Shown here in pieces: positions 20,347 to 52,266 of a stretch of 64,000 nt of DNA. Numbering within the stretch: the first letter of the stretch is position 1; each line of letters opens with the position of its first letter. Source of the DNA: an uncultured Thermoprotei archaeon (GTDB taxonomy: Archaea; Thermoproteota; Thermoprotei; Thermofilales; B15-G2). The stretch covers positions 1-64,000 of the forward strand of contig CBDUKN010000005.1 of assembly GCA_965367815.1 (NCBI GenBank), in the 5' to 3' direction. The position numbers were made by a program, and so were the translations under genes. The notes below the pieces were generated by a model. It made no database searches and was not told the origin of the DNA. It saw nothing but the letters and a program-made list of their open reading frames with translations.

Positions 20347-20448
20347 ATAGCTCACTGGGTCTACGGTAAAAGTGATTTAAAAATCTTTTGCAAAAAACAC
20401 GCGAGGTATGAGAGAAATATTCGACGGGTATTTAAGGTTTTCGTTAAA

Positions 20449-20458: not shown

Positions 20459-20478
20459 TTTTCATGCGAGTAAAAAAT

Positions 20479-22602: not shown

Positions 22603-25600
22603 ATGTCGAATAAATTAGTATTAATACTAGCTTTGCTGCTAACATTCCCATATATAATCTGTTTTACTGCAACAATGGCTCCTCAAATAACAACAGAAAT
22701 AAGCATTGAGAATATAGCTAAACACATAGAATTCTTCGTGAGCCTGGAGTCGCGATTTGTTGGAACTGAAGGATACTACAAGGCTGCAGAATATATTGAA
22801 AAGTATTTAAGTGGTCTTGGCTTAAAGCCGAAAATACAGGAATTTAAAGTCCTTGTCCCGGTGGAGAGCAACACTCGATTAACTGTAGGCGGCGAGGCAT
22901 ATGAACTATATTCAGTTTACCCGAACTTAGTGGCGCCATCAAAAGCACCGCCTGAAGGAATCACAGGCAAGTTAGTTTATGTAGGCAGGGGCTCACTCGA
23001 AGAAATGAGCGGAAAAGATATCTTTGGATCAATAGTTCTCATAGATATTGATGGATGTGACAAGTGGATTAATGCAATGAAGCTAGGTGCTAAAGCTATA
23101 ATTATTCTCGAGACAAAAGAAGTAGATAGACTACGACTAGAAAGAAGTCTGACTATAGGTGCTCCAATACCTTTTCCAAGATTCTACGCTAAAGGTGATG
23201 TAGCGCTTAAGTTAATAGAGCTAGCTAAGAAAGGAGTTACAGCAACAATTTATGGAGGTCATATATGGAAAGAAGTAAAGGGAATAAACATTATTGCCAC
23301 AGTTGAGGGAAGCGAATACACCAATAAAGTAATTTACCTGCTAGCACACTATGACTCATTTTCGTATGTTCCAGCACTAAGCCCTGGAGCAGACGAAGCA
23401 TGCGGAATAGCTACTCTCCTTGAGCTAGCTCGAATAATAAAAGAGCTTAAACCTAAATTCACAGTATGTATAGTCGCTATAGGAAGCCACTGGCAAGGGC
23501 TAGCTGGAGCAAGATACTTTGTAGAAGAATACTTGTTCAGCGAAGAAGTAGGCACTAAAATACAGCCTTACTTAGCTATAGGCTTAGACCTATCAACTAG
23601 CACTAATAAAGTATGTTTCGCGGTCACAGGCTACATGTACGCTATGGCTCATTCAAATCTTTACGATAGACTCCTCACATCAATATTTATGTTCTCCAGA
23701 GAAGTCTTAAACGAATTCCAGCAAGAATACAGTGATGTATACTCAAGAATAGAAAGCAATGAGCTCAAAAACTTACTAGGACTTACTGCAAGTAATTGGG
23801 GCTCTGGATATGTAATGCCTTATATTCTTGACACAGAACCATTTAATGTTGCAGGACTCCCTGCTTTTACTTTTTTGACTCTTTATGACATGAGAGGCTT
23901 CTGGTTGACGCCGTTTGATACCTTCGACAAAGTAAACTTAAATAATTTAAGAGATCAAGTGATTTTTATAAGCTACTATTTAAAGAAGCTAGTAACAGAG
24001 GCCACTCCAGACAATATATATAGAGGCTCTTGGAGTGATATAAAGCCTTCTAGATTAAAACTAATAGCGACGGGAGCAAACTTCGGCTATGATAGACTGA
24101 TAGTAGAAGTAGTTAGATACGACCCGACAACACCAAAGCTCTATAGACCAGTGCCAAATGCTATTGTTGTAGTATCAAAGAGAACAGGCTGGTACTCTAT
24201 CGCTGCAGCATACAATAGATACAATATGTTTGCTTGGATTTTAGCGAGAGCTGACGAAAATGGAACGGCTCTCATAGTAGGTGCTCCTTCAACCCACGCA
24301 GCATGCGGCAACGTATATGTGGAGGCCTATGTAGTAAGCGACGAGACAGGAAGACTAACATATGCTCCTGACGAAGGAAGTTACGGGACGAGTGTATACC
24401 CGCATGTAATAGAAGTAAAAGAAGATCTGCAGAGGAGTAGAACAGTGGTTTTTGAGTGCTCTACTCTAGTAGTATCTGATGTAATATATCCGTATACTTT
24501 GCAGAAAAACATTTATTTGTCACCATTTAAGTCGCCCACTAATCCGATACCTTATGCATCGTACGACACCCAGGTCTCAGCAGAAGTTCTTCAAGCAGAA
24601 GCCTTCAATCCGCTAATGTCTTATGGCTGGACGTATGACCCATTAACTTCTACTTTATTAGTATTTGCTCCACCCAACATACGCTTCGTAACTATCATTA
24701 AGTTCACGGGCCAAGCCTTCATAGGAGCAATAGTCTGTAACTCTACTCCAGAAGAACCTTTAGGTAAAGGCTACAGCTTCAATAAAATAGGAGAAGTAAA
24801 GTACATTACTATAGCTCCTCACCTCTACACCAAAGAGTTACTCTCAATTACCCAGCCAAGATATCATATAGCTTCTGTCTACAAGATACTTGATCCAGCG
24901 CTAACTAACTACTTTACTTTAGCTAATTCATTCCTAGCCGAAAGTGAGGCGAGCATTAAGAGCAAAGAGTATGCTAAGGCATACTATCAGTCGCTACTAG
25001 CATGGGGCTACGCGCTAAAAGCCTATGAGCGATCAAGAGACGTATACCTTGACGCTGCTTTCAGCATAACATTCGCTCTCCTAATAATTCTACCCTCAAT
25101 AGTGCTCATGGAGAAGCTCATAGGCAAAATGAAGGGCTTCAGCAGAATAACAATACTTGTGGCGATAGGTATCATATTCTTCACTATTCTATGGGCTCTA
25201 CACCCCGGTTTCAGCATTATAGGAAGTGTTCCTGCTCTGATCACGGGAACAGTAGTACTAGTACTCGTCGCACCAGTACTAGTACTAGTTATTTCCCAAG
25301 CGTCCTTCGGAGTAAGCGAAATTAGAAAGAGTCAGATAGGACTCCACTTCCTAGAGCGCTCGAGACTAGAGATGATTGTCTCAGCCTTATTAATAGGCAT
25401 TGAGCATATGAAGAGAAGAAAGCTGAGAACTTTGCTAACACTATTCACAGTCATAGCTGTTACATTCTCGCTAGTATCGCTAACTTCAGTTACTCCTGTG
25501 GTCGTACTCAAAGGAAACGTCCGTCCAGGAAAGCCACTATACAAAGGTATTCTAATAGAGTCAGTAGGATTCACTCCAATAGAAGAAAATGTTATCTACA

Positions 25601-27081
25601 TAGCTAAAGAGCTATTCCCCAACGCAATTGTATGCGAGAGAGTATGGGTATACCCCGAGCTAGGACAGAGAGAAGTTTCTCAAAGTACATTCTCGCTCTT
25701 CGCTAAAAACCAGACAATGTATCTGAGAGCAATAGTTGGAGTATCAGTCAACGAAAAGTATGCTCTAGGAGACTTCCTACTAACGAAAGCTTGGCTCGGA
25801 GGAAGCTGGTTTGACAGCGACTACGAGTACGCGTGTATCGTACCCAAGAGTGTAGCCAGCGCACTAGGACTGCACATTGGAGACACAGTCTGGCTAAACG
25901 GTATAAGATTCATTGTGAAAGGAATATTCGACGATATAGCTTTAAGCGAAGGCTTAATAGACTTAGACGGCTACTGCTCACTCCAGCCAATTTTCAGAGA
26001 AGAGCTGACAGTACTACAGGTATTCGACCCTGAAGTGAGAGTAAAGTGGAGCTCTCTTGTCTTGATACCTGTAGGCATAGCTAAAGCCATGCCAGGATCC
26101 TACCTAGCCTCAGTAGCAGTAGTTACCTCTGCACCTGACTCTGAGATAGTAAAGAAGGCTGAAATGATGTATTCCTGCATGGACGGACTAATAGTCCACG
26201 CAGGACTCTCGGATAGGGTACAAGTATACGCTAAAGCCTACGTGCAAGTAGTAAGCGGCTTCTCGATGGTTATTCCACTAATAGTCATTGGAGGCCTAGT
26301 AATTCTGACAACAATCCTTGGAAACACTTACGAGAGAATGAAAGAAGCAGGAATACTCAGCGCTCTAGGTCTATCGCCAATACATGTTTCAGGAATGTTC
26401 TTCGCAGAAAACGTCGTATATGCTCTCGTAGGAGCATCGATAGGATACGCTCTAGGACTAATAGGCGCTAGATTCTTCGCGGCATACCACATTCTGCCAG
26501 AGTACGTCGGAGTAAACTACACTTCAACAAGCGTGATCTTCTCGATAGGCATGGTTATAATCATGGTTCTATCGGCTTCACTCTATCCATTCTATAAGGT
26601 GTCCAAGCTAGTTACACCAAGCCTAGAGAGACGCTGGAAGCCTCCGACAAAGCCTAAAGGAGATGAGTGGGAAATACCACTACCATTCACTTACTTAGAC
26701 TTCAATGAAGTACTGGGTCTAGTCTACTACCTCTCAGAAATATACAGAGAGCACACCATTGAGAGAGCAGGAGCATATACTGTAGTGAAGCACAGAATGT
26801 TTAAGGAGCAGGAGAAAGCCGGAATAGAGTCGATAATATGGCTGCCGCCCTACGAGCTGAACATTAGGCAGAAATCGCTACTAGTACTATATAGAAGCAA
26901 GACTGAAGGAAAGTACGTGACCACATTAGTCTTAAAGAGACTGAGCGGACCTTACGTAAACTGGGTCAACTCCAACCTAGGCTATATAGACGAGCTACGC
27001 AAGCAGTTCTTGACATGGCGTCTCCTAAGGCCTGAGGAGAGGCGCAAGTATATAGAGAAGGCTTTATCTACTCTGAGGTGA
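22603..27081 (+). CDS. PA/M28-peptidase-like ectodomain fused to MacB/FtsX-type permease (1492 aa)
   Basis: Signal/TM; SR..GTEG, PA insert (YVGRG...GAKA), AHYDS, PGADE; TM bundle; RRKLRTLLT; MacB-like extracellular domain; YERMKEAGILSALG coupling helix; VTPSLERRWK. Confidence 0.8.
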   Translation: MSNKLVLILALLLTFPYIICFTATMAPQITTEISIENIAKHIEFFVSLESRFVGTEGYYKAAEYIEKYLSGLGLKPKIQEFKVLVPVESNTRLTVGGEAYELYSVYPNLVAPSKAPPEGITGKLVYVGRGSLEEMSGKDIFGSIVLIDIDGCDKWINAMKLGAKAIIILETKEVDRLRLERSLTIGAPIPFPRFYAKGDVALKLIELAKKGVTATIYGGHIWKEVKGINIIATVEGSEYTNKVIYLLAHYDSFSYVPALSPGADEACGIATLLELARIIKELKPKFTVCIVAIGSHWQGLAGARYFVEEYLFSEEVGTKIQPYLAIGLDLSTSTNKVCFAVTGYMYAMAHSNLYDRLLTSIFMFSREVLNEFQQEYSDVYSRIESNELKNLLGLTASNWGSGYVMPYILDTEPFNVAGLPAFTFLTLYDMRGFWLTPFDTFDKVNLNNLRDQVIFISYYLKKLVTEATPDNIYRGSWSDIKPSRLKLIATGANFGYDRLIVEVVRYDPTTPKLYRPVPNAIVVVSKRTGWYSIAAAYNRYNMFAWILARADENGTALIVGAPSTHAACGNVYVEAYVVSDETGRLTYAPDEGSYGTSVYPHVIEVKEDLQRSRTVVFECSTLVVSDVIYPYTLQKNIYLSPFKSPTNPIPYASYDTQVSAEVLQAEAFNPLMSYGWTYDPLTSTLLVFAPPNIRFVTIIKFTGQAFIGAIVCNSTPEEPLGKGYSFNKIGEVKYITIAPHLYTKELLSITQPRYHIASVYKILDPALTNYFTLANSFLAESEASIKSKEYAKAYYQSLLAWGYALKAYERSRDVYLDAAFSITFALLIILPSIVLMEKLIGKMKGFSRITILVAIGIIFFTILWALHPGFSIIGSVPALITGTVVLVLVAPVLVLVISQASFGVSEIRKSQIGLHFLERSRLEMIVSALLIGIEHMKRRKLRTLLTLFTVIAVTFSLVSLTSVTPVVVLKGNVRPGKPLYKGILIESVGFTPIEENVIYIAKELFPNAIVCERVWVYPELGQREVSQSTFSLFAKNQTMYLRAIVGVSVNEKYALGDFLLTKAWLGGSWFDSDYEYACIVPKSVASALGLHIGDTVWLNGIRFIVKGIFDDIALSEGLIDLDGYCSLQPIFREELTVLQVFDPEVRVKWSSLVLIPVGIAKAMPGSYLASVAVVTSAPDSEIVKKAEMMYSCMDGLIVHAGLSDRVQVYAKAYVQVVSGFSMVIPLIVIGGLVILTTILGNTYERMKEAGILSALGLSPIHVSGMFFAENVVYALVGASIGYALGLIGARFFAAYHILPEYVGVNYTSTSVIFSIGMVIIMVLSASLYPFYKVSKLVTPSLERRWKPPTKPKGDEWEIPLPFTYLDFNEVLGLVYYLSEIYREHTIERAGAYTVVKHRMFKEQEKAGIESIIWLPPYELNIRQKSLLVLYRSKTEGKYVTTLVLKRLSGPYVNWVNSNLGYIDELRKQFLTWRLLRPEERRKYIEKALSTLR

Positions 27082-27086
27082 GGAGA

Positions 27087-28994
27087 ATGGCCGAGGCCGG
27101 CGGAAAAGAAATAGAAGAATTTAAGCCCGGCCTAACGCCAGTATCGCTCTTCGCCATACTCTACGCAACAGTTGTAATGACTCCAGTAGTCATCTTCTTG
27201 CAGATAGTAGCCGGTGTCAGCGACGTAGTGAGATTCATACCTGTTTTCATAACTCTACTTCTATTTACTGAGGTAGGACGATTCGCCTACCGATATGTCA
27301 CAAGCCAGGAAGCCTTCATTATATACTTCATGGCCGAAATGGTAGCATTCGACGCGCCCTACTTTGGCGGATTAATATACAATCTGTATTTGAGAGAAGC
27401 ACCCTACACTAAGCTATTCGGGCTGGCCGACAAGATACCTACATGGGCTGCTCCACCGCTGACAAGCTACGGAGCAGTATTCAGAACATTTATTGCTCTT
27501 GAGTGGGCCATGCCTATAGCAGTATCACTAATAGGCTTTGCCGCAGGAACGCTTATAGACTTCGCGTTATCATTCATACTTATTCAGCTGTTCATCGAAA
27601 TAGAGAACTTGCCATACCCAGTAGCTCCAATCGACGCTCAGGCAATAACGACACTAACAGAGAGAACACCTGAGAAAATAACTTGGTTCTCGGTAGCAGC
27701 AGTTATTGGATTTATCTACGAATTCATACTGTACGGAATACCCAGCATAACTGAAACATTTCTCAAGACGAAGATATACTTCATACCCTACCCCTGGATA
27801 GACCTAACGTACCTCATAGAGAAAGTACTGCCAGGAGCAATGTTCGGCTTAGCTACAGACATTTCAATGTTCGTAGTAGGCTGGGTAGTGCCATTCGACG
27901 CCGCTATGTGGATTTTCATCGGAAGCTTAACAACCTTCGTTATAGGAAACTTCCTGGCACTAAAGCTACCGCTACCAGCTTTCGCTGAGTGGCAGAGAGA
28001 GTGGACACCAGGGCTAAGCATAAGCTGGCTATGGCAGAGAAGCATGTACAATATATGGGCTAGCCCGCTCATAGGACTCTCGCTAGGCGCATCGCTGTAT
28101 ATCTTCGCAAGATCGCTCAAGTACATGGGTAAAGCTCTCGAAAGCTTAAGGAGACTAACAGAGGTTTCTAGAGCCAAAGGATACCTTTCACTGAAGTACG
28201 TTTTAGCGATGTGGATCACAGGTATAGTTTTAGGAATAGCGATAGACTGTCTGCTAGTGCCGCAGATATGGTACGTATGGGTCTTCATATGGGCAGTAGT
28301 ACCATTCCTCCAGGCAATACTAGTAGGAAGAATGGTTGCTGAAATAGGAATAGGTACAGGTATCCCTTATATACGTGAAGCACTTCTGCTGGCTACAACA
28401 CCTCCAGGTTTCGTAGACCCCTGGATGGCTCCATGTAAGACAACTACAGCGGCTGGTATAATAGCACACAGGATTAAAGTAGCTCTGCTAACTAAGACAA
28501 AGCCTATTGACTACTACAAGGCATCAGTAATAGCCATACCGATAATAATCTTCGCGAGCTTCGTGTTCTGGAGCTTATTCTGGTCAATGGCTCCTATACC
28601 TTCAGCAATGTATCCGTGGACAGCTATTTCATGGCCAGTGCAGTCTCTAAACTTCGCTCTCTGGGTCTCGAGATCATTTCAGATATTCAAGCCTGACCAG
28701 ATACTTGGAGCAACAGTACTGATATTCGTTGTAAGCGCTATTGCAGAGAAATTCAAGCTGCCGTTCAACTACTTAGGCTTCGTAGCTGGCGCAGGCATGG
28801 TCCCGCCATTCGCTCTAAACTACTTCCTTGGAGCACTTGTAGGGAGATACATTGAGAAGAAAGTAGGTAAAGAGCGCTGGGAAGTACTGAGATCAGTAAT
28901 AATAGCTGGACTGTTCTGTGGTACAGGACTAGCAGTAGGTCTCTCAGTAGCAATACTGCTCATAGGCAGAAGCATTTGGGGAGCGCCCTACTAA
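27087..28994 (+). CDS. OPT-superfamily-like polytopic membrane transporter, type A
   Basis: GLTP, T.QEAF.I, IENLPYPVA, LPGAMFG, C-terminal SIWGAPY; homologous to 44250-46091. Confidence 0.7.
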   Translation: MAEAGGKEIEEFKPGLTPVSLFAILYATVVMTPVVIFLQIVAGVSDVVRFIPVFITLLLFTEVGRFAYRYVTSQEAFIIYFMAEMVAFDAPYFGGLIYNLYLREAPYTKLFGLADKIPTWAAPPLTSYGAVFRTFIALEWAMPIAVSLIGFAAGTLIDFALSFILIQLFIEIENLPYPVAPIDAQAITTLTERTPEKITWFSVAAVIGFIYEFILYGIPSITETFLKTKIYFIPYPWIDLTYLIEKVLPGAMFGLATDISMFVVGWVVPFDAAMWIFIGSLTTFVIGNFLALKLPLPAFAEWQREWTPGLSISWLWQRSMYNIWASPLIGLSLGASLYIFARSLKYMGKALESLRRLTEVSRAKGYLSLKYVLAMWITGIVLGIAIDCLLVPQIWYVWVFIWAVVPFLQAILVGRMVAEIGIGTGIPYIREALLLATTPPGFVDPWMAPCKTTTAAGIIAHRIKVALLTKTKPIDYYKASVIAIPIIIFASFVFWSLFWSMAPIPSAMYPWTAISWPVQSLNFALWVSRSFQIFKPDQILGATVLIFVVSAIAEKFKLPFNYLGFVAGAGMVPPFALNYFLGALVGRYIEKKVGKERWEVLRSVIIAGLFCGTGLAVGLSVAILLIGRSIWGAPY

Positions 28995-40312: not shown

Positions 40313-43300
40313 ATGAAGGAATTATACAGAGCTCTAGTGCTACTGATGATACTTCTAGTATTTCTTCAGCCCGAAGTACTGGGCAAAGAAAATCCTTTTG
40401 ATCTTAGAAGCTTTATTTCTTCAATAGACTTCAATAGAGTGTGGAATTATACTAAAGTACTCTCTAGCTATAGATCTCGTGTACCAGGTTATCCAGGCTA
40501 CTATAAGGCAATTAGATTTATAGCTGAATACTTTAGGAAAATCGGCGTAGGGTATATTCTAGAGAATTTTTCTGTAACTTCTCCTATAGAAGAAAAAGTA
40601 TATATAAAGGTTATTGAGACAGGCGAAGTTTTAGAGGCTCATGCGCTTTGGCCCAACATGATTGTGACGTCTAATATTGATTACAAGGGGAGAATCGTTT
40701 ACGGAGGTAAAGGAAAGCTTCTTGATTTCAACGGAAGAGATTTAGAGGGATCTATTGTTTTACTGGATTTCAACTGTAGATGGTTCTGGACGAATGCTTT
40801 TTCCTTGGGTGCTAAAGCTGTAGTTTTCATAGAGAATAAGTCTACTTTGAGGTTCGATGCCTGGCTCAAAGTCTTTCATATGCCAGCATATTTTCCTAGA
40901 CTATATGTTGATAAAGAAGTGGGAGAAAAATTAATTGAGTACGCTGAAAAGGGGTATCATGTAAAAATATATTCTAAGGTCGAGTGGCGTGAAGTAACTG
41001 CTACAAATATTGTGGCCATGATTCCGGGAACAGATGTAATTTTGTCTAAGGAGGCTGTGTGTATAGTAGCTCATGTAGACTCTCTTTCTCCAGTTCCAGC
41101 AAAAGCTCCGGGGGCTTCAGAAGCATTTAACGTAGCTCTTGTACTTGAACTAGCTAGACTCTTCCTTAAGTTAAAGCCTAAGAGAAGTATAGCAATTTTG
41201 ATTACTGGGGCTCATGGCTTGGCTTTGGCTGGGGCTAGAGAATATGTTTCAGTGCATTTTAACGAACTTGGAGTTAGAATAAGGCTTGTAGTAGAGCTTG
41301 ATTTAGATTGGACAGGCTCAGAGCTAGCTGCACAGTACTATGGTTTGTTTTATAACTTGTTGGCCTTTGTTCCAGGCTATGAGGCTAGATATAGGTGGGT
41401 AAGAGACCGTATGATCAGATACATGGATTCGATAGATGAGGCTCTTGGAGAAAAAGTATTTGTATACGATACATTGTCGCTTACGTACTTCTTTTACGAG
41501 CCAATTCCCTGTTTCTTAGACAGCGAAGTATTCGCTTTAACAGGCATACCTGCTTTCACTTTAAGAACATTTTACAGCTTTAGACCATGGCTATACACGC
41601 CATATGATACTTTAGAGCATGCAGACATAGATTTTGCGGAAAAACAAGCTAAAATAGCTCTCTCTATCATCTATTGTTTTACAAAGGATTCAGAGAAAAT
41701 GCCTTCCTCAACCCCTACTACAAGAGGTGTAGGATACGGATTTTCGTACATAAAGGGAAGAGTGTATAGGTACAATAGAACAAAGGGGTGGTTTGAACCA
41801 GTTTCAGCTATAGTGGCTTTACCTATGTGGCCTTATCACATAGGAGTGCTAACAGACTCTAATGGGACTTTCATAATTAAGGGAGTGAGATACAGTGGAT
41901 ACTACTGGCTTTTAGGATTTAGGCTAAATGAAGAAGGAACTGTTGAAGCAGCTAATGAGTATGGTGGATTAGGGCCTGTACTGCCCATGCTTTTCGGTGT
42001 TAGTGTCTATAAGACTATTTCTGAAGTAAACATTAGAATAACTGACTGTGGCTCACTTGTTATTACTAATGCATATGATCCTAGGTTCTTTATTCCAGGA
42101 TATTTGTCTTTCTCGGTTCTTAATGCTACTTATCATACGGCGCTGATAAGCCGGGGGCCTCAATACTGGTACTGGTATTCTCAAGTACTTATTCTTCCAG
42201 CTGGCACAAGAATAGAAGTAGTTATGAAAAGAGGACTCGATGTAGTCGCAGTAATAAATAATGCTTCTCCCGAGAATCCTTTAGGAAAGGGCTACTCTAT
42301 TGAGAAAGGTAAGCAAATTTTGTTAGAGAACTTTCCTCTTGTGGCAGCAAGTACTCTTTATACAATACTAGACTATAGGATAAAGACGCTCAGAGTATAC
42401 AGCTATAGAGTTCTAGACTATCACAAAGAAGCAGGAGTCTTAATAAATGAAAGCAGAAGACTTCTAAGAGAGAAAAAGTATGGAGTAGCCTATGCGTCGA
42501 TGTTAAGAGCGTGGGCTATGGAGGCCCATGCGTATAATTCTTTCCAGTTTCTGTTAGGAGACATAGGTTTTGCACTAATAGTTATTGTTGTACTGCTTTT
42601 CATAGCTTCTATGAGATTGAAGCTTTTGTTTAGAAAGTCGTCTAATACTGTTGCATTTACTTGTTTTGCTTTATCGCTATTCGTAATTTCGCTATGTCAC
42701 CCGTCTGTAAGAGCATGCTCTTTAGGCCTCTTTATAGTTCCTTCAGCTGGAGCTCTGTTAGTAATAATAGTTGTTGTCATATCGCTACTTAAGACTTTTC
42801 TTTCTCAAATAATGAAGATTAAAAGAAAGCCTCCTAGAGTATTTTCTCGCAGAGTTTTTGCAGAAATACTTCTCTTATCTCTTGCCACTTCAGTAAGTTT
42901 CTTTATGTCTGGTAATCTTACATATGTAACTCATATAAGTGAAGCTAGGCTAGGGGCCAAAGGGTCTTATAGCGGCATAATGATAAGGACTTTTCCGTGG
43001 AGTGTTCTATGTGAGGCTGAATACGATATAATCAGGAGCGAAGTCAAAGCTCTCGGCGGGTACTCTTCTATGAGAGTATGGGCTTATCCTCACTATGGTG
43101 AAGTTCGAGTAAGCAATATGACTATTCTCAAAGCGTTCTTAGGGCTGGGATTAGAGGAAGTGAAGATATCGAACATAAAAAAAGCTATAGTCAAGGGAGG
43201 CTGGTTTAGTAGTGAATTCGCGAAGGAGTGTATAGTTAGCTCTTTCTTAGCTAAAACACTAAATATTAGTGTTGGAGACGAAGTTGTACTATATGGACTT

Positions 43301-44269
43301 AGGCTGAAAGTGGTAGGGATATTTAATGAAAGCATGTTGAGTGTATTTAAAGACCTAGACGGAGAGCTAATAACTCCGAGAGACATAATGATTCCTAGGA
43401 GTGAGGAAATTCCGGTACATACAGCTCCCAAGTACATAGTTATAGTGCCGGATGAACTAGCCCGCGAAATGGACGGCAATATTTATAGTGTAGCTATATC
43501 GTTTAACAACAGTAAGCTTTTAGTAGAGTACGCACGTCGTCTAGCTTATATCTTTGATGGAGTCTACGTTTATTTGTCAGTAGACGGTGAAAGATATATT
43601 GTCGCAGCTCATCATGCACTCGGATTCAAGATAATAAATCGGTTCTTCTTAATACTTGTACTTTTCTTTTCGTCAATTATTCTTATAGTCGCATCGGTAG
43701 AAAAGGAGTTTACTACATCTGATGCTCTTCAAGCAAGCTTCATAGGAGGAATCCTAGGCTATGTAGTACACTTAGCTTTAGCTGAACTTGGTTTATGTGA
43801 GCCTAGTGTCATAACTTTGGCGCCTATAGTTAGCTGTCTTATAGGCTTTGTTCCAGTTTCACTGTCGACGGCTTTCTCGAGGAAAGTAAGAGAATTAAGA
43901 GAAGCTGCTATAGAGGCAGTTCCAGTCGAATATAGGATTAAAATAGAAGAGCCTTTACCTAGAGCTCTTGATTTCATCGAAGAGGTCGTCAAAGAGGCTT
44001 TGACAGAAGAACACGGGTATTTGATTAAACGTAGAAAAAGAACAGGCGAGTATCTTGCTCTATTAGTTCAAATACTGCCTAGAGAACTTTTCCTCTTCTA
44101 TAAAATAGTATTTAAGCCAATTACAGTAGATGGAGAAACATATATAGTCTTAGAGATAGCAGGCAAAGGCCTAGGTGCTAAGAAAATTAAAAGACGTATT
44201 GTACCCGATATAGTTGAGCTTATTGAAAACAAGTTGAGGGAAAAAGAGGGTGAGAAGCTTGAGGAGTAG
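40313..44269 (+). CDS. Second PA/M28-like + MacB/FtsX-like fusion (1318 aa), permease part degenerate
   Basis: SRVPG..G, PA insert, AHVDS, APGASE, FPRLY, NASPENPLGKGY, DLDGE.ITP; homologous to 22603-27081 but lacks the ERxxExxxLxxLG helix. Confidence 0.78.
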   Translation: MKELYRALVLLMILLVFLQPEVLGKENPFDLRSFISSIDFNRVWNYTKVLSSYRSRVPGYPGYYKAIRFIAEYFRKIGVGYILENFSVTSPIEEKVYIKVIETGEVLEAHALWPNMIVTSNIDYKGRIVYGGKGKLLDFNGRDLEGSIVLLDFNCRWFWTNAFSLGAKAVVFIENKSTLRFDAWLKVFHMPAYFPRLYVDKEVGEKLIEYAEKGYHVKIYSKVEWREVTATNIVAMIPGTDVILSKEAVCIVAHVDSLSPVPAKAPGASEAFNVALVLELARLFLKLKPKRSIAILITGAHGLALAGAREYVSVHFNELGVRIRLVVELDLDWTGSELAAQYYGLFYNLLAFVPGYEARYRWVRDRMIRYMDSIDEALGEKVFVYDTLSLTYFFYEPIPCFLDSEVFALTGIPAFTLRTFYSFRPWLYTPYDTLEHADIDFAEKQAKIALSIIYCFTKDSEKMPSSTPTTRGVGYGFSYIKGRVYRYNRTKGWFEPVSAIVALPMWPYHIGVLTDSNGTFIIKGVRYSGYYWLLGFRLNEEGTVEAANEYGGLGPVLPMLFGVSVYKTISEVNIRITDCGSLVITNAYDPRFFIPGYLSFSVLNATYHTALISRGPQYWYWYSQVLILPAGTRIEVVMKRGLDVVAVINNASPENPLGKGYSIEKGKQILLENFPLVAASTLYTILDYRIKTLRVYSYRVLDYHKEAGVLINESRRLLREKKYGVAYASMLRAWAMEAHAYNSFQFLLGDIGFALIVIVVLLFIASMRLKLLFRKSSNTVAFTCFALSLFVISLCHPSVRACSLGLFIVPSAGALLVIIVVVISLLKTFLSQIMKIKRKPPRVFSRRVFAEILLLSLATSVSFFMSGNLTYVTHISEARLGAKGSYSGIMIRTFPWSVLCEAEYDIIRSEVKALGGYSSMRVWAYPHYGEVRVSNMTILKAFLGLGLEEVKISNIKKAIVKGGWFSSEFAKECIVSSFLAKTLNISVGDEVVLYGLRLKVVGIFNESMLSVFKDLDGELITPRDIMIPRSEEIPVHTAPKYIVIVPDELAREMDGNIYSVAISFNNSKLLVEYARRLAYIFDGVYVYLSVDGERYIVAAHHALGFKIINRFFLILVLFFSSIILIVASVEKEFTTSDALQASFIGGILGYVVHLALAELGLCEPSVITLAPIVSCLIGFVPVSLSTAFSRKVRELREAAIEAVPVEYRIKIEEPLPRALDFIEEVVKEALTEEHGYLIKRRKRTGEYLALLVQILPRELFLFYKIVFKPITVDGETYIVLEIAGKGLGAKKIKRRIVPDIVELIENKLREKEGEKLEE

Positions 44270-46091
44270 TGCAGTTTTTCTTATTCTCTTTATTCTCTCA
44301 GCGATAATTATTCCTCTAATACTTTACTCGAATCTAATAGGAGCGGGATTTTCACAAATAAACGCTTGGCTTATAGTAATAGCTGTTTCAGAAATAGCTC
44401 TTTGGCTAGGGAAAAGGCTTACTCGAAGTGAAGCATTCTTAATACAGGTACTATTGCCTGTTATTACTGGTCAAGCTCTTCTATTCTACAATATTCTCTA
44501 CTACAGCTATATAGTGTGGAGCCCTTTCTCGAAAGAGTTCAGTTTCACCAAAATTATATGGTGGTTTCCCCAAGAGCCATTAGTAGCTTTGAATATAAGA
44601 AGTTTCATTCAGCCTACTTTTGCTCCTATAGTAGCGATTTTTGTTACAACATCTCTTATTAGTACTGTATCGGGACTTGCTTTAGGTTATATAGGATATG
44701 AATTACTGGTAGTCAAAGAGAAGCTTGACTTTCCTATGCAAGTAGCTGTAGCTGATGGTCTTTCAGCAGTAGTAGGAGAAGACCCCGTTAAAGTCAAGTT
44801 TTTCTCTATATCAGCCATTATAGGTATACTTTATGCAACATTAACTACACTAATACCTATTCTTGCTATGCGCCAAGTGCCTGCTCTGCTACCAATATTT
44901 ACCTACGACTTGACTCTAGTGGTAGAACATTTTCTTCCCGGAGCTACTTTAGGCATAGACTTTAATCTGCTTACATTCTCTTCAGGTCTAGTTATTCCTA
45001 TTAAAAGAGCTTTATGCCTGCTCATAGGCTCTCTCTTAGTATATGTAATCGGGAATCATTTGCTCGTAGTGACAGGCTACTGGACTAGTAGCCCTATAGG
45101 CAGATGGATGCCTGGGTCAAATATTTCCTACTGTATTAGATGGTCGTCGTTCAATTTCTGGACAAGCTTCAACATAGGTGTGGCTCTCTCTGCTGCACTA
45201 ATACCGCTTATTTTGAAGAGAGAAGTTGTCAAAGAAGTGTTCTCTACTATAGCTCAAGTAACTAAAGGTAAGGGAGGGTATGCTTCAAGAGCTCTTTTAC
45301 TGTTTATAGCTCTTTCTTTCTTAAATATCATGCTACTAGTGTTAGCTTTACCGGAGTTTCCCGTGTATTTAGTGGCATGTTTCATGCTACTATGGCCACT
45401 AGTCTCTACACTAGTATCAGCTAGCTCTATAGGTGCCTCAGTCTACAGCTTTAACATACCTTATGTCAAAGAAGGACTCATAATAGCGTCGAAGTATAAG
45501 GGTCTTGACGTGTGGATTTATCCGCTATACCTTGATCCAGGAGGAGCAGGATATACTGCTAACATGAAGACTTCTGTACTCTGTGGAGTAAAGCCAGGAG
45601 ACTACATCAAGTACACAGTGTTAGCAGTAATTATGGGCATAGCTCTCAGCTTTATTTTTACTACAATCCTGTGGTATATACATCCTATTCCATCATGGAG
45701 CTACCCTGCTACAGCATATAACTGGCAGATATCGGCCTATAATTTCCTCTTAAACATCTCGTGGATGAGTCACGGCGAGATCATTAAGCCGCATATAATA
45801 CTACTGGGAGTAATTATAGGAGGCATAGGCTATATTACAGCATATATCTTCAAAAAGGAAGCCCTTTTCTTCTCACTAGTAGCAGGTCTATCGCTAGCTC
45901 CTTCAGCTGCTCTAACAACATTCATAGGATCTCTAGTCAGTAGCCAGCTAATGTCGAGAATATATAAAGATAAGTGGCAAGAATATGTAGGAAGCGTGAC
46001 TTCAGGTTTAACTGCGGGCTGGGGAGCTGTTAGTTCATTTGCTTCAATAATAGCTTTTATCCAGAGGGGAGTATGGGTACTGCCATATTAA
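44250..46091 (+). CDS. OPT-like transporter, type A
   Basis: T.SEAF.I, EKLDFP, LPGATLG, IPY.KE, PIPS..YP, C-terminal GVWVLPY; paralogue of 27087-28994. Confidence 0.7.
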   Translation: MRSLRSSAVFLILFILSAIIIPLILYSNLIGAGFSQINAWLIVIAVSEIALWLGKRLTRSEAFLIQVLLPVITGQALLFYNILYYSYIVWSPFSKEFSFTKIIWWFPQEPLVALNIRSFIQPTFAPIVAIFVTTSLISTVSGLALGYIGYELLVVKEKLDFPMQVAVADGLSAVVGEDPVKVKFFSISAIIGILYATLTTLIPILAMRQVPALLPIFTYDLTLVVEHFLPGATLGIDFNLLTFSSGLVIPIKRALCLLIGSLLVYVIGNHLLVVTGYWTSSPIGRWMPGSNISYCIRWSSFNFWTSFNIGVALSAALIPLILKREVVKEVFSTIAQVTKGKGGYASRALLLFIALSFLNIMLLVLALPEFPVYLVACFMLLWPLVSTLVSASSIGASVYSFNIPYVKEGLIIASKYKGLDVWIYPLYLDPGGAGYTANMKTSVLCGVKPGDYIKYTVLAVIMGIALSFIFTTILWYIHPIPSWSYPATAYNWQISAYNFLLNISWMSHGEIIKPHIILLGVIIGGIGYITAYIFKKEALFFSLVAGLSLAPSAALTTFIGSLVSSQLMSRIYKDKWQEYVGSVTSGLTAGWGAVSSFASIIAFIQRGVWVLPY

Positions 46092-48037
46092 AGCAAGACA
46101 GGATAAGAATATTGAGGAATTACGCACTGGTAGTGTTTATTTCAGCGACTTTATCCTCTATTTCAGTTAGAATGATATGTATTAGAGGTGCGGGACTAGG
46201 ATTAATGCTGCCTGTATACTTAAATTCATCAGCTATATTGCTGTTCTTCCTTCTGGCTATTCTCTCTGATCTTTTGCTAGAGCTAGGCTTTAAGCCCAGC
46301 AAATTCGATGTAGCTTTAGTCTATATATCAATATATGTGTCTACTTCTATTGGAGGAATATGGCTTCTAGCGGGATCTATCGGCAGAGCAATGTTTCTTT
46401 CTTATCAAGAACCCTTTAGATCGCTTACAGCTGAATATAGGCCGTACTTCTGGGCACCGCCCGGAAAGTACTTAGCTAAACTCATGGCATCTCCTATGTC
46501 TATTGACTGGAGCGTATGGACTGTACCTCTTCTTTACTGGTTTTCGTTAGCTTTCTTAGCATGCTTACTAGCTATTTCGGCAGGCCGTATTCTAGCACCA
46601 GTATTGGTAGATTTAGAGGAAATGCCGTTCCCTACAATTACATTATACAGAGGAATTAGAGATTCTTTCAAGAGGGATGGACTCATAAGAAGAATTTTCC
46701 TATACTCTGCGCTAGTGTCATTTTTGATAAACTTGCCGGCTTTAATTCGACTAGCAGTACCATGGTTCCCCCTGTTTCCGTTCCCTCAGGCCTATGGATA
46801 TACTATGACCATAGATTTAGCGGCCGTAAGAGAGCTCAGAGTATTTATTGCGCAAAACGCGGTTTTAGTTTTATCAATTAATCCGCTGTGGATTGCTGCA
46901 TGCTATTTGCTTCCACTGGATACTCTGCTAACGTGGTGGATTTTTTACATAATTTTTAATGTTGTGTACCCGCTACTAGCTGTTTACTCGAATCTGCTCC
47001 CTCCACTAACACTACCCTTTGGAGCTCGACGAATATGGGTCTTGCAAAACTTTCGATATGGATTGTTCATGCCGTATATAGCTATTACAGTCGGAGGACT
47101 TATTTCCTTAGGAGTAGTCTCTATAGCAAAACTATTCTTATTAGCTAAAAGAACTACACGGAAATTTCTCCTTTTAATTGCTTTAGCTATAGCGGGACTC
47201 TCAGTACTATCCGCTGTAAACAGATTTTCTCTAGGGCTTATTGTGTTCTCGCTACTTTCTACAATACTTGCTATGGCCATTTACTTAGGCATTCTTTCAC
47301 TTGTAGGAGAGAGCTTTATATTACCTGTAATGCTTGCAAGACCATTTAACGCGGCACTAGGACAGTACTTGAGCGAATACATAGGTTTATCTACGTCGCA
47401 GGCTTTCGTGCCAGTACATGTTCTCGGAGTACTGCTTCTCGGCGAAGCCTCCTACTCTATTCTGGCTCCGGGAGTAGCTCTACTTGAAAGCTATCGACTA
47501 ATAGCGTCGCCAAGGTATAGGCCTAGAGAAGTCAGAGTACTTAGAAATAGTCTAGCTAAGCTAACTATATTGTCGGTGGCAGTTTCGCTTTTCTCAGCGT
47601 ACTATACTATGATTTCAACAGCACATGAATACAGTATAGGGAGCTTACCCGGCCTTAAGACAATAGTCTTCGAGTACGGTAAAGCTGAAGCAGACTTCTT
47701 AATGGACGCCGCTAAAATAATGGTCAGCGAAAATTGGTGGACAAGTCTAGTACTCGGTATGCTGTTCTTATCTATAGTCTCGCTGATAAGGCTTAAAATA
47801 CTCGCTTTCCCCATATGCCCTGTAGGACTAGTTTTATCTACTTCAGAGTTATCGCTTTACGGAATGTGGTTTTCAGCTCTGCTTGCTTACATACTCAAGA
47901 GAACTACTCTGGCTTTAGGAGGACCAAGGCTTTATATGAGAGAAGGTAGGGCTATTGCAGTAGGAGTAATTTTAGGTTACTCATTAAGCTACATAGCGTC
48001 GTCTGCACTCAGTTTCGCTTTATACTTTATTCACTAG
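46073..48037 (+). CDS. OPT-like transporter, type B (DUF6785/DUF6784-like, from memory)
   Basis: WAPP, EEMPFP, YLLPLD, PICPVG, K.....GG..LY..G...A.G..LG; paralogue of 20479-22452. Confidence 0.65.
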   Translation: MGTAILKQDRIRILRNYALVVFISATLSSISVRMICIRGAGLGLMLPVYLNSSAILLFFLLAILSDLLLELGFKPSKFDVALVYISIYVSTSIGGIWLLAGSIGRAMFLSYQEPFRSLTAEYRPYFWAPPGKYLAKLMASPMSIDWSVWTVPLLYWFSLAFLACLLAISAGRILAPVLVDLEEMPFPTITLYRGIRDSFKRDGLIRRIFLYSALVSFLINLPALIRLAVPWFPLFPFPQAYGYTMTIDLAAVRELRVFIAQNAVLVLSINPLWIAACYLLPLDTLLTWWIFYIIFNVVYPLLAVYSNLLPPLTLPFGARRIWVLQNFRYGLFMPYIAITVGGLISLGVVSIAKLFLLAKRTTRKFLLLIALAIAGLSVLSAVNRFSLGLIVFSLLSTILAMAIYLGILSLVGESFILPVMLARPFNAALGQYLSEYIGLSTSQAFVPVHVLGVLLLGEASYSILAPGVALLESYRLIASPRYRPREVRVLRNSLAKLTILSVAVSLFSAYYTMISTAHEYSIGSLPGLKTIVFEYGKAEADFLMDAAKIMVSENWWTSLVLGMLFLSIVSLIRLKILAFPICPVGLVLSTSELSLYGMWFSALLAYILKRTTLALGGPRLYMREGRAIAVGVILGYSLSYIASSALSFALYFIH

Positions 48038-48142
48038 TGCTTGGATACTAATGCTGAAGTCTTCTTCTCAGTATAGTGCTACTAGTCATAAAGAAAATTA
48101 GTGTTGTGTATAGTAAACAAATAAATATTTGTTAAAATAAAA

Positions 48143-48460
48143 ATGCCTGTGGAAATACCTCAGCAGGTACTCTCAAGAATGCAGCAACATATTAGGAAAG
48201 AAATAGTAGATTTATGTAAAAAAGAAGGAGTAACTAATATTCTCTACACAAAAGTAGGTATAGTTGAGAGAGATGGCAGAATGATGCTTTATGTTAAAAT
48301 AAAGCCGAAAGGCAAAATACCTTATGAGCTCTTAGATAAAATAGCTAAGTTAATGAGGATGAAGTACACAAGAAAAATACTCGTTGATTCTCCTCACTTA
48401 TATGCAATAAGGCTTAGTGGAGAGTTAAGAAAAGAAGTATTTAAAAGATTTAAAAAATAG
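48143..48460 (+). CDS. Hypothetical basic protein
   Basis: 105-aa ORF with typical codon use and a TATA-like element upstream; no recognised motif. Confidence 0.6.
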   Translation: MPVEIPQQVLSRMQQHIRKEIVDLCKKEGVTNILYTKVGIVERDGRMMLYVKIKPKGKIPYELLDKIAKLMRMKYTRKILVDSPHLYAIRLSGELRKEVFKRFKK

Positions 48461-48474
48461 AGATGTGCTTGCAG

Positions 48475-48624
48475 TCACTTTAAATACTTTAACACTATTT
48501 CGCCTTCTTTGAGAAATACTTGTATCTTAGATCCTGCTTTTAAGCCGAGTTTTACTCTGATATCTTTAGGAATTACTATACGTCCTTTTGAATCCATTTT
48601 GACGACGTAGACATCTTCGTCCAT
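48475..48624 (-). CDS. AbrB/MazE/SpoVT family DNA-binding protein (49 aa), not in the ORF track
   Basis: Hand translation MDEDVYVVKMDSKGRIVIPKDIRVKLGLKAGSKIQVFLKEGEIVLKYLK matches the D.KGRI.IPK.IR..LG...G signature. Confidence 0.9.
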   Translation of the reverse strand: MDEDVYVVKMDSKGRIVIPKDIRVKLGLKAGSKIQVFLKEGEIVLKYLK

Positions 48625-48747
48625 TTAAATCCCACGCACATTAACTAGCCATCTAAATATTTTTTCCTACTCTTTTCAAGAGGGCTTCTAAAGATCTCTA
48701 CATGGAACACATTTATTACTCCGCTGAGAAAAACTCTAGCAGAGATT

Positions 48748-51700
48748 ATGAGAAATAAAGCCGCTATTGTTATTATTGTCTGGCTAGTTCTACTACCAGT
48801 CTTCTCAAAATTTATAGCTCATCCCTCCTCATCTACTATTAAAATTACTTTCATAGATGAGGACTCAGAAAACCCTGTTGTTGGAGTTTTCTTGATGAAG
48901 AGCGGAAATAAATGGTTATATGTTAAGACAAATAATAGAGGTGAAATAATTGTTAACAAGAACAGTTTAATTTATGGCCCAAGAATATCTCCTAAACCAT
49001 ATTTTCCAATAAAGATAATAGCCTTAAAGAACACTACTATAAAACTAAAGAAAGCATACTTCATTGTAATGAAAAAATACTTAGCTCTATATAATCCATA
49101 TGAAAAAATAGAAAAAATTTCTCCTATTGGAGCTATCTCCTTTGAAGTAAATAATATGAGATTTGGCTATAAGAGCGACGCAAGATATCTTGGACTTAAC
49201 TCTTCAACAGTACTAGTTCCAGTAAGCGGGGAAATCATATTAATAAAAACGAATAACTTTATATTAAGTATAAATGCCACTCAAGCAAAATGGGGTGATT
49301 ATATTGAATTAGATTTAGGGAAAGTCAGCTGCAAATATAACAAGATATTCTTAGATAACTCTATAGCCAAGCTAAAAGAACAAATGAGTATACTAGAAAG
49401 AAAAGGTATTTACGTGGGGTTCTGTAAAACACTATTTGAACAGCTGATTGAACTTAAAAATAAAGCTGAAGAATTCTATAAACGCGGAAACTGGGAAGAA
49501 GCCCTTGTCGCCTATAAGAAAGCTTTTCTAATATATGGCGATATAGTAAACAGAATTAATGTTCTTAGTACTAGATCAACTTTAACTGTTCCTACTATAT
49601 CATTAGTTCTAGTTTTTCTTTCATACTTCTTGGCTTCATTTATAACTGACAAGAAGTTCAAGAAAATATTATTATATTCTTGCATATACTTTATATTACT
49701 GTTAATTATATTTGCAGTATATCCTATTTTACTTGAAGGAAATCCCTATCTTACGATATCTCCTTTATTCATATACCTATTCTCTCTGATAATCTTTATA
49801 TTATCTGAAAAGATACCTGACCATTATATCAGAGAAGGATTTTCTTTCGCCGCTGCTACTTCAGCTTCTCTATCAATAGTTTTAAGGGAGAATAGGAGAC
49901 GTAAATTGAGGTTAACCTTAACTTTGTTAACTATAGCTCTTGTAGCGTTTGCTGTACATACTTTAAACACTTTAACTATTATTCAGTGGTTCTATGAAAA
50001 GGAAGTAGCTTATGTATCTTCAGCATACAATGGAAGTATCTTAGTGACAAAACTTAAAGAAAGTGTATTTCCATATTATTCTCTTTCAATAGTATTTGTA
50101 AGAACTATTTCGAATATAGATTCTCCTCAAATAATTTGTATTAAACGTGAATCTTCGCCTTATTCTAAAGAGTTTAAAATAAGTTATGGCGAAAAAGAAG
50201 TATATGCACTAGGAGCTATAAGCTTTACATCCGAAGTAAAGTATTTTCTCCCTCTAAAAGAAGCCGTAATAGAGGGTAAAATTCCAAGTCAGGAAAGTGA
50301 AGTTCTCTTAAGTCAAACAATGGCGAGTGCCCTTGGAGCAAAGTGCGGAGATAAAGTATCTATTAATGGTATTGAGGCCACTGTTGTAGGAATATTTGAT
50401 GAAGATAAACTTAGTGAAATAAGAGACCTTGATGGAGGAAAGATATTGCCAGTAATGATAACTCGGGAAGAAGGGTCATGGAGACTTGAAGTAATTCCTG
50501 CCAAATACACTATTATCTGTTCCGAGTTACTAGGAGAACGCCTTAAACTGCCGCGCTACAAAATCTACGTAAAAGTTTTGGGAAATCCAGAAGACTACGC
50601 AAGAAAAGCCGCTATTTTAACCGGTTCGTTGGTTTTCATAAACATGGGAGGAAAAGTAAAGTACTATACTGTATCTACAGTTATTGTAGTTAAGGGAGAG
50701 TCTCTTATTATTCCGATAGTGATTGCTCTTCTAACAGTATTTGTTTCAATAATGGAGAATGTATATGAAAGAAAAAGAGAAATAAGTATACTAGCATCCT
50801 TAGGTCTAAATCCATCGAATATAGCTTATCTCTTTTCGCTCGAAGGAGCAGTCTTGGGTTTTGTGGGATCTGCTCTCGGAATGTTTGCAGGATTTATTGC
50901 ATTTAAAGCATTTAGTTTAGCGGAAGTACTTGTTCCAGTAGACTTTAAGTTATCTCCAGTAGAACTATTGTTTACAGTAGTTGCAGCAACGCTAGTATCG
51001 ATTACTGCGTCTCTTCCTCCGGCGCTAAAAGCGTCGGTCATGGTTACTCCTAGTCTTGAAAGACGTTGGAAACTAGAAGAACAGAAAGATTTCATTGAAA
51101 GAGGATTGACACAAACACTTCCAATAAGAATACCAGCAAATAGAGTAGAAGACTTTGTGAACTATGTAGTAAGCAAGTTCAGAGAACTGAGTACAGGTCT
51201 TTTGCAGAAAGTAGACTTAATTTCTGTGGAAAAAATAGGTGAAGAATACAGAATATTATTCAAGTACTACAAGGGAAGCGATATTAGCTATAAGTCGTGT
51301 TTTACTGAGAATACTTTAATATTATATAAGATCAGTGATAATGTCTACGGAGCTAAGGCTACATCAAAGCCTGTTACCCAGCACAGTAAGCTGGGACTCT
51401 ACTATGTTCATGAAACACTATCTTTTCTACGTAAAATAGCCTTGGAGTGGAGTTCGAGAGCCACACGAATACTCGTGGCTCTAGGAGAAAACCCTGCAGT
51501 ACTATACACTATAGTGAAAAAATATGACCCGTATGAAGTAATAGTTCTAACTACTCCTGAGCGCATAGAAACAGTATCAAATGCTAAGAAAATTCTTGTA
51601 AAAGAAAAAATTCGAGTACCTGCTATTAGAGTCTATTCATTATCTTCCCTAAGCGAGTTATTTAAACTAAAGGAAGACTTAAGAATTTTACTAAGTGAAG

Positions 51701-51909
51701 TGCAGTACATCGCAGTAGGCTACGACTCGGGTCTAGCTGGAGTAATTTTGACTATTCTTTCATCTAAAGCAGGGAAGAAAATACTGCTCATAGAAGACAA
51801 GAGGAGCAAAACTAAGAAAGAAGAGAGGTCTTTTGCTAAGCTAGAGGTAACAGAAGTTTCTCCCAGTGAGTTAAAGAGAATATTTGGCTACAGAGAGTCA
51901 TTAGAATAA
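48748..51909 (+). CDS. MacB/FtsX-type permease paralogue without M28 domain, with C-terminal CARF-like Rossmann domain
   Basis: RRRKLRLTLT, DLDGG.I.P, YERKREISILASLG and VTPSLERRWK shared with 22603. The extra C-terminal ~140 aa begins RILVALGENP...EVIVLTT. Confidence 0.75.
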   Translation: MRNKAAIVIIVWLVLLPVFSKFIAHPSSSTIKITFIDEDSENPVVGVFLMKSGNKWLYVKTNNRGEIIVNKNSLIYGPRISPKPYFPIKIIALKNTTIKLKKAYFIVMKKYLALYNPYEKIEKISPIGAISFEVNNMRFGYKSDARYLGLNSSTVLVPVSGEIILIKTNNFILSINATQAKWGDYIELDLGKVSCKYNKIFLDNSIAKLKEQMSILERKGIYVGFCKTLFEQLIELKNKAEEFYKRGNWEEALVAYKKAFLIYGDIVNRINVLSTRSTLTVPTISLVLVFLSYFLASFITDKKFKKILLYSCIYFILLLIIFAVYPILLEGNPYLTISPLFIYLFSLIIFILSEKIPDHYIREGFSFAAATSASLSIVLRENRRRKLRLTLTLLTIALVAFAVHTLNTLTIIQWFYEKEVAYVSSAYNGSILVTKLKESVFPYYSLSIVFVRTISNIDSPQIICIKRESSPYSKEFKISYGEKEVYALGAISFTSEVKYFLPLKEAVIEGKIPSQESEVLLSQTMASALGAKCGDKVSINGIEATVVGIFDEDKLSEIRDLDGGKILPVMITREEGSWRLEVIPAKYTIICSELLGERLKLPRYKIYVKVLGNPEDYARKAAILTGSLVFINMGGKVKYYTVSTVIVVKGESLIIPIVIALLTVFVSIMENVYERKREISILASLGLNPSNIAYLFSLEGAVLGFVGSALGMFAGFIAFKAFSLAEVLVPVDFKLSPVELLFTVVAATLVSITASLPPALKASVMVTPSLERRWKLEEQKDFIERGLTQTLPIRIPANRVEDFVNYVVSKFRELSTGLLQKVDLISVEKIGEEYRILFKYYKGSDISYKSCFTENTLILYKISDNVYGAKATSKPVTQHSKLGLYYVHETLSFLRKIALEWSSRATRILVALGENPAVLYTIVKKYDPYEVIVLTTPERIETVSNAKKILVKEKIRVPAIRVYSLSSLSELFKLKEDLRILLSEVQYIAVGYDSGLAGVILTILSSKAGKKILLIEDKRSKTKKEERSFAKLEVTEVSPSELKRIFGYRESLE

Positions 51910-51945: not shown

Positions 51946-52266
51946 ATGAGTAAAAACATAACCTACATGAAGTTCAAGTCGCTCGAAGACTTAGTAAGAC
52001 TGATAGTGACAAGCCAAAGACCACTACTTTTTCACAGCACTTACGGAGAAAATAAACACGTTTACTATATCTATGGTACTGCTGGCCAAAAACTTATAGT
52101 ATACTATGTTATCTTAGATAAGCCTATAAACAAGAAATATATTCATTACAATGTTTTAGAAGGAAGAATATCGTATGGTAATGAAGTAAACAGAGATACC
52201 CGTTTCGTGAATATACCAGTAATTGAAGTGGATGAAGAAAATATAACTAGAGAATTAATTGAATGA
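51946..52266 (+). CDS. Conserved crenarchaeal-type hypothetical protein
   Basis: 106 aa, K..SLEDL.R ... IP.IEV pattern; own AT-rich promoter region. Confidence 0.6.
   Translation: MSKNITYMKFKSLEDLVRLIVTSQRPLLFHSTYGENKHVYYIYGTAGQKLIVYYVILDKPINKKYIHYNVLEGRISYGNEVNRDTRFVNIPVIEVDEENITRELIE

Follow-up and report, generated by a model that had tools for sequence, protein, structure and literature searches.

A catalogued CARF-family domain at the cytoplasmic end of an FtsX/MacB-type permease in a Thermoprotei archaeon

CARF domains are receivers of the cyclic-oligoadenylate alarm signals from type III CRISPR systems. What, then, might such a domain do at the cytoplasmic end of an envelope permease? 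The question is raised by a gene of an uncultured Thermoprotei archaeon, which lies in a 64,000-nucleotide stretch of DNA (positions 1 to 64,000 of contig CBDUKN010000005.1, forward strand; referred to here as the window) and encodes a 1053-amino-acid (aa) membrane protein, P0001. An initial annotation of the window placed a CARF-like domain at 51466..51800, suggested that a nucleotide second messenger gates the permease through it, and noted that it did not know the architecture from described systems. The layout of the gene and of its tail is as follows.

48748..51909, + strand: whole gene, 1053-aa membrane protein P0001, a single open frame of 1053 codons, PADLOC family CARF_m8--CARF_LolE_TM
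48748..49572, + strand: signal-anchor-like hydrophobic N-terminal stretch and presumed ectodomain of ~250 aa (residues 1 to 275), as read from the sequence
49864..51072, + strand: FtsX/MacB-type permease module, residues 373 to 775 (amphipathic RRRKLR helix, first transmembrane helix [TM1], MacB_PCD-like outer domain, TM2 to TM4), from Pfam and alignment with a paralogue
51097..51456, + strand: tail domain D1, residues 784 to 903, β-α-β5-α, KA1/START-like fold
51466..51885, + strand: tail domain D2, residues 907 to 1046, CARF fold, six strands
51481..51498, + strand: β1-α1 loop "LGENPA," residues 912 to 917, at the CARF motif 1 position, from the D2 secondary structure and aligned with the "GGQAAP" region of Can2
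51715..51735, + strand: β4-α4 loop "VGYDSGL," residues 990 to 996, at the CARF motif 2 position (ITGGRK in Sso2081 and Sis0455), from profile hidden Markov model alignment to both

The peptide quoted in the initial annotation is in frame in this gene, with position 51466 at codon 907 (the start of RILVALGENP) and position 51800 at codon 1018. When P0001 was compared with PADLOC-DB v2, the profile PDLC01991, named CARF_m8--CARF_LolE_TM, matched residues 204 to 1033 over profile positions 2 to 810 of 810 (E = 7.8e-279, 925 bits), and the longer sister profile PDLC01990, CARF_m8--CARF_Beta-galactosidase_LolE_TM, matched with an E value of 1.2e-107. Since the match to PDLC01991 runs from end to end, P0001 belongs to a named family, of which it is simply a member with no structural difference, and the claim of novelty is not upheld: the CARF-FtsX/LolE architecture is already known and catalogued, not a new discovery. 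The longer form described by PDLC01990 has its counterpart in the ~1800-aa relatives found in the tail and genome searches described below. Names beginning with "CARF_m" reportedly stem from the CARF classification of Makarova et al. in 2020, and the PADLOC-DB entry for CARF_m8--CARF_LolE_TM consists of a name only, without a function.

In both fold and family, D2 is confirmed as a true member of the CARF superfamily, within the minor family already catalogued as CARF_m8, and we have little doubt that the two assignments hold together. Taken alone, D2 matched the CARF_m8 profile (E = 6.5e-38), as well as CARF2 (1.8e-4) and CARF1 (3.5e-4), and a 29%-identical homologue, P0005, matched CARF2 (6e-7) and CARF4 (1.7e-4), which places the CARF1, CARF2, and CARF4 matches at E values on the order of 1e-4 to 6e-7. 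An AlphaFold2 model of the two-domain tail built from 32 aligned sequences had a predicted local distance difference test score (pLDDT) of 89.4 and a predicted template-modeling score (pTM) of 0.67. The Foldseek list obtained with this two-domain model (Atg7, LOV2-Rac1, spermine synthase) was muddled, with very high root mean square deviations, and D2 was therefore modeled and searched alone. The resulting model (pLDDT 92.0, pTM 0.85) includes β6 and α6, and it has six strands, one more than the five originally described; the proposed start of the domain at 51466 stands, while its end lies ~85 nucleotides further 3′, at ~51885.

In the Foldseek search with D2 only, the top matches were Cam1 bound to cyclic tetra-adenylate (cA4) or hexa-adenylate (cA6) (E = 6.9e-5) and Sso2081, and CARF proteins also ranked on top in a Foldseek-independent structure search of 48,161 chains. 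Profiles of the family gave weak matches against PDB entries, namely to the ring nucleases Sis0455 (E of 0.009 to 0.03) and Sso2081 (0.04 to 0.2) over β4-α4 and to Can2 over β1-α1-β2. Small CARF-clan clusters were found in the ESM Atlas with scores of 0.84 to 0.88; since these are below 0.9, we treat them as leads only. Neither a phmmer search of the tail against PDB sequences nor a comparison of D2 with NCBIfam returned a match. Sub-threshold Pfam matches of the tail or D2 to OLD-like TOPRIM (19.6 bits against a cut-off of 27), HI0933_like, and Cas6_N were treated as noise.

The domain is also retained by relatives, as the initial annotation had asked of its orthologues. A HMMER search with the tail (residues 772 to 1053) against 1.84 billion representative proteins yielded 43 matches with E ≤ 0.001, of which 15 reached ≤ 1e-10; in the matching proteins of at least 650 aa (range, 650 to 2090 aa) the match lay at or near the C terminus, and the shorter entries look like fragments. 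The nearest named homologue of P0001 comes from a metagenome bin labeled "Thermoprotei archaeon." Among 401 sampled genomes of the phylum, the D2 profile matched 41, of which three (G038, G163, and G325) were excluded as nonmembers, leaving 38 carriers. The carriers span at least nine families of the phylum and usually hold one to three copies, mostly a single one; the domain is always C-terminal, in proteins of 1000 to 1850 aa, and its frame is free of internal stops. A sequence conserved in this way in 38 of 401 genomes is no chance pattern.

The three excluded matches are weak (E of 2e-4 to 9e-4) and lie in open reading frames (ORFs) of 184 to 213 aa (G325:C1:1994764-1994952, G163:C1:1879374-1879562, and G038:C1:1018071-1018247). 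Their genomes are complete, belong to one family, and all have Cas10 matches, and the ORFs may code for short CARF proteins without a fusion partner, for instance ring nucleases. In another genome (locus L012, G370:C57, positions 1004-2364, − strand), the boundary between D1 and D2 is exactly where the orthologue breaks into two ORFs, which overlap, with the D2 piece forming a 147-aa protein (P0025); a frameshift, an error in sequencing, or a true division of the gene could each account for this.

Within its own genome, P0001 is the only protein to carry the whole tail. Twelve places match the tail profile, and D1 is at least partly common to all of them, but P0001 alone spans both D1 and D2, whereas the other 11 end after D1 at the latest. 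One of these paralogues lies in the window.

22603..27081, + strand: locus-1 paralogue, a 1492-aa M28-PA-FtsX fusion that ends after D1, without D2

This protein shares 31% identity with P0001 across residues 373 to 775 and continues for 146 residues past the aligned part, matching the first tail domain only (profile positions 1 to 110). As the paralogue stops after D1, P0001 runs ~150 aa further, in agreement with the initial observation that it continues past the point where the paralogue ends.

If D2 is a CARF domain, does it keep the CARF pocket? Canonical CARF domains contact their ligands through a β1 loop of small residues and through a [DN]-x-T-G-G-x-K motif after β4. At the second position the "ITGGRK" of Sso2081 and Sis0455 is replaced by "VGYDSG" in P0001, so the motif was rightly called degenerate. 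A well-conserved acidic "DSDDG" occupies this position in most relatives, among them the ~1800-aa subfamily and the G098 group, and some ~1100-aa relatives keep "(S/T)GG," with the basic residue kept in none. The β1 loop is variable across the family, but the two loops covary by subfamily, "G-x-S/D" occurring with "DSDDG" and "D-P-S..SQ.YT" with "(S/T)GG." Because the β1 and β4 loops change together between subfamilies, the D2 pocket is probably in use, as judged from these alignments.

The predicted quaternary structure is CARF-like. A dimer model, which the initial annotation had suggested building, came out as a symmetric, two-fold homodimer of D2 with interface scores (ipSAE) of 0.79, 0.78, and 0.79, against 0.37 for the best control; the mark applied is attained in 20 of 30 solved pairs and in 1 of 23 single chains. 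Contact agreement between runs was 90% or better, and the pLDDT of the partner was at least 83. The predicted interface comprises the motif 2 loop, α4, β5, and β6, and the motif 2 loops (residues 990 to 996) and α4 meet on the two-fold axis, with self-contacts 92:92 and 91:92, which we take to be the CARF-type arrangement.

Based on these observations, we consider it fairly probable that D2 is a cytoplasmic dimeric regulatory module, and slightly more probable than its opposite that an envelope machine uses it as a dimeric ligand sensor or as a coupling module. On the cytoplasmic side, D2 follows the final transmembrane helix of an FtsX/LolE/MacB-type permease, separated from it by the KA1/START-like linker domain D1. 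FtsX/MacB permeases work as dimers, so the geometry would readily accommodate a cytoplasmic cap, itself dimeric, beneath the membrane domain. Beyond fold and family, the mechanism that we infer would run as follows. Two CARF domains would pair about a two-fold axis, as in CARF sensors, with their β4-α4 loops facing each other, and the dimer would bind a small cytoplasmic ligand, probably nucleotide-derived and distinct from the cyclic oligoadenylates of type III CRISPR systems. Movement of the dimer between open and closed states would be transmitted to the outer domains through D1 and TM4 or the transmembrane helices, or the outer domains would act on the dimer by the same route. P0001 itself would be a type VII ABC-like permease subunit of an envelope or nutrient-handling machine, encoded beside OPT-like and DUF6785 membrane proteins, and its gene would be a housekeeping gene rather than one for a defense effector. 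The parts of this proposal differ in strength. That D2 binds some small ligand is possible, if short of an even chance, and that the ligand is a cyclic oligoadenylate is improbable. Only tentatively do we put forward CARF_m8 as a working sensor of a non-CRISPR cytoplasmic signal, by which Thermoproteota would switch an envelope machine of the FtsX type that has no ATPase. The signal itself might be a metabolite derived from a nucleotide; the acidic "DSDDG" would also suit a cation or a complex of metal and nucleotide.

Several observations weigh against D2 being a CARF-type sensor of this kind. No Pfam CARF-clan model matches the tail or D2, even at E values up to 10, and the D2-only Foldseek list interleaves E1-type Rossmann folds (Atg7, MoeB, and UBA5) with the CARF proteins at similar E values and TM-scores of 0.45 to 0.60, so the structural comparison proposed at the outset did put CARF proteins on top, but not alone. 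The loops "LGENPA" and "VGYDSGL" of P0001 do not fit the canonical CARF ligand motifs, and neither loop is conserved across the family. In the 18 tail sequences compared, R124 and P157 alone are invariant (tail numbering), with W130 nearly so, and among 18 D2 sequences only E2, Y28, and P30 are, corresponding to a glutamate at the D1-D2 junction and a "Y.P" before β2; these residues look structural. Since the motif 2 loop is acidic in most members, it is a poor fit for binding a polyanionic nucleotide. All of the structures are predictions, and the passing dimer score may reflect the model's memory of, or likeness to, solved CARF dimers. Finally, a search with the LolD model found no ABC ATPase gene on contig C5 that could drive the permease; a distant partner is possible.

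In the main rival explanation, D2 is a CARF relic that has no ligand and acts as a cytoplasmic dimerization or scaffold module, joining permease protomers or docking a partner. The very low conservation of the classical pocket motif, the structural appearance of the few invariant residues, and the confident prediction of a symmetric dimer are all what a scaffold would give, and the 11 paralogues in the same genome lack D2. However, the correlated variation of the β1 and β4 loops and the strong conservation of "DSDDG" within its subfamily suggest selection on the pocket, and D2 has been kept, mostly in single copy, across at least nine families. We therefore hold the relic to be rather unlikely, albeit with a substantial share of the probability.

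In a second rival explanation, a cyclic oligoadenylate or related defense messenger would be the ligand of the CARF domain, which would gate the permease, making P0001 a membrane immune effector like Cam1, Csx23, or Cap1. The resemblance is real in part, since Cam1, Csx23-type proteins, and Cap1 are membrane proteins activated by cA4 that, like P0001, have a CARF or CARF-like cytoplasmic domain on transmembrane helices, and the CARF domain of Cam1 is the best Foldseek match of D2. These effectors, however, are small, have one or two transmembrane helices, form pores, and reside in type III loci, whereas P0001, at 1053 aa, has large outer domains, resembles a type VII ABC permease, and is encoded among housekeeping genes. 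The loop sequences also speak against a defense effector, with "GYDSG" in P0001 and "DSDDG" in most relatives taking the place of "TGGRK."

The genomic distribution of cyclases points the same way. The initial annotation had asked whether the genome has type III CRISPR or CBASS; in this genome, which is 99.4% complete, there was no match to TIGR02577, TIGR02578, or PF22335 (Cmr2, Csm1, and Cas10 palm) and no above-threshold cGAS/DncV-like nucleotidyltransferase (CD-NTase), the sole SMODS match scoring 21.7 bits against a cut-off of 26.5. This sub-threshold match (locus L046, G000:C26:25772-26143) lies within a 489-aa frame that may encode another nucleotidyltransferase, such as a CCA-adding enzyme. 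A Cas1 gene is present on a separate contig, C8. TIGR02578 matched 132 of the 401 genomes overall and 9 of the 38 D2 carriers, and PF22335 also matched 9 of the 38; the union of the two models covers 11 carriers, so that 27 of 38 have a Cas10 match in neither. None of the nine palm-positive carriers has Cas10 near the D2 gene: the two sit on separate contigs or, in G334, share one with at least 164 kb between them. These counts come from related, nonindependent genomes and fragmented assemblies, in which divergent cyclases could be missed. Among the carriers, the D2 gene does not co-occur with Cas10 and is not linked to CRISPR. Together with the acidic loop at the phosphate-binding position, these data leave unsupported, and in part contradict, the proposal that a cyclic-oligoadenylate messenger gates the permease; the defense effector ranks as the least likely of the CARF readings, and we consider it quite improbable.

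That D2 is no CARF domain but a generic Rossmann-like fold (E1/MoeB-like, USP, receiver, or TIR-like) merely resembling one is the least probable explanation of all and can be set aside with near certainty: Atg7, MoeB, and UBA5 do stand among the top Foldseek matches (E of 5.6e-4 to 3e-3, TM-scores of 0.45 to 0.52), Pfam CARF models give no match, and de novo Rossmann designs lead one PDB profile search, but the end-to-end CARF_m8 match, the CARF proteins at the head of the 48,161-chain search, and the predicted two-fold dimer agree with a CARF-like domain, and USP, TIR, and receiver folds were not among the matches listed in the structure searches, where weaker similarity is possible.

P0001 differs in several respects from better-described CARF proteins. 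The stand-alone ring nucleases Sso2081 (Crn1) and Sis0455 carry "ITGGRK" at motif 2, in contrast to the "VGYDSG" of P0001 and the "DSDDG" of most relatives. Compared with these nucleases and with the CARF domains of Can2/Card1, Csa3, and Csm6, P0001 has no fused nuclease, helix-turn-helix, or HEPN effector; its CARF domain is C-terminal to a polytopic permease and has no type III CRISPR association. With MacB, LolCDE, and FtsEX, P0001 shares an FtsX domain, matched by PF02687 at residues 655 to 763 (51.7 bits; cut-off, 25.5). Between TM1 and TM2 lies a candidate MacB_PCD-like outer domain, for which PF12704 scored 23.6 bits over residues 391 to 554, below its cut-off of 27, and the NCBIfam lolCE, MacB, and FtsX models gave weak, sub-threshold matches. 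It differs from these systems in having no fused or neighboring ABC ATPase and in its extra N-terminal transmembrane helices and ectodomain; to our knowledge, a cytoplasmic tail of KA1/START-like and CARF domains is absent from MacB, LolC/E, and FtsX. The topology would place residues 1 to 275 on the outside, and in one orthologue (locus L040) the corresponding region has a sub-threshold CarboxypepD_reg match (28.9 bits against a cut-off of 32.3).

The genes around the CARF gene and its orthologues are housekeeping and transporter genes, with purine and histidine genes among them. Upstream lie three genes with Pfam assignments.

40313..44269, + strand: M28-peptidase/MacB_PCD fusion
44250..46091, + strand: OPT-like transporter
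46073..48037, + strand: DUF6785/DUF6784 protein

Downstream of and around the gene are an oxidoreductase, TYW3, adenylosuccinate lyase, IMPDH, and GMP synthase. In a genome of a different family (G098, locus L041), DUF6785/6784 and OPT-like genes are found within ~7 kb of the CARF_m8 orthologue, and the orthologue in genome G085 comes after a histidine operon. The window holds two paralogous, same-strand clusters (20329-28994 and 40313-48037), each with a giant M28-peptidase/FtsX or MacB_PCD fusion, a DUF6785 (and DUF6784) gene, and an OPT-like gene, and neither has an ABC ATPase nearby; a 638-aa ORF at 27078..28994 has no Pfam match. Elsewhere in the genome, the LolD model gave 36 matches at E ≤ 1e-20, all outside contig C5 and five of them strongly LolD-like, and no window ORF scanned contained ABC_tran. 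Near the G098 orthologue there are ABC ATPases, which were considered as a MacB-type partner and rejected, as they belong to a branched-chain amino-acid type system.

A few further features of the window can be recorded. The G+C content is 0.316 at 48001-50000, which covers the 5′ half of the gene, compared with 0.36 to 0.46 across the rest of the window. Two small ORFs of 105 and 106 aa (48143-48460 and 51946-52266, both + strand) flank the gene and match no Pfam family, and locus L012 has no obvious look-alike of the second. A stand-alone Cas4-like PD-(D/E)XK nuclease gene lies at 59019-59675 (− strand), with no cas neighbors in the window. A reverse gyrase with helicase, topoisomerase IA, and reverse gyrase zinc finger domains is encoded at 16651..20355 (− strand), which identifies the organism as a hyperthermophile.

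Has the family been studied under another heading? Our literature search returned no functional study of the CARF_m8 family. The searchable literature never pairs CARF with FtsX and never names CARF_m8, although supplements may list the family, and queries combining CARF with MacB or LolE gave nothing relevant among the matches listed (carfilzomib and similar). A later paper credits the 2020 CARF work with cataloguing 6665 CARF proteins in 13,116 genomes (PMC11754643). The accessible part of Makarova et al. 2014 (PMC4012209) mentions "membrane-associated CARF" but does not contain the words permease, ABC, or transporter, and permease, ABC, and FtsX are absent from the accessible part of the 2025 CRISPR classification (PMC12669027).

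The contribution of this analysis is therefore a narrowed set of hypotheses on a family that so far has only a name, rather than the discovery of an architecture. If D2 has no ligand, it would represent a sensor fold reduced to a dimerization module. If D2 binds one, CARF sensing would be used outside defense, pointing to a small-molecule signal in hyperthermophilic archaea. Should that signal be a non-CRISPR one, the CARF fold would have been recruited for housekeeping transmembrane signaling, with its ligand specificity diversifying between subfamilies.

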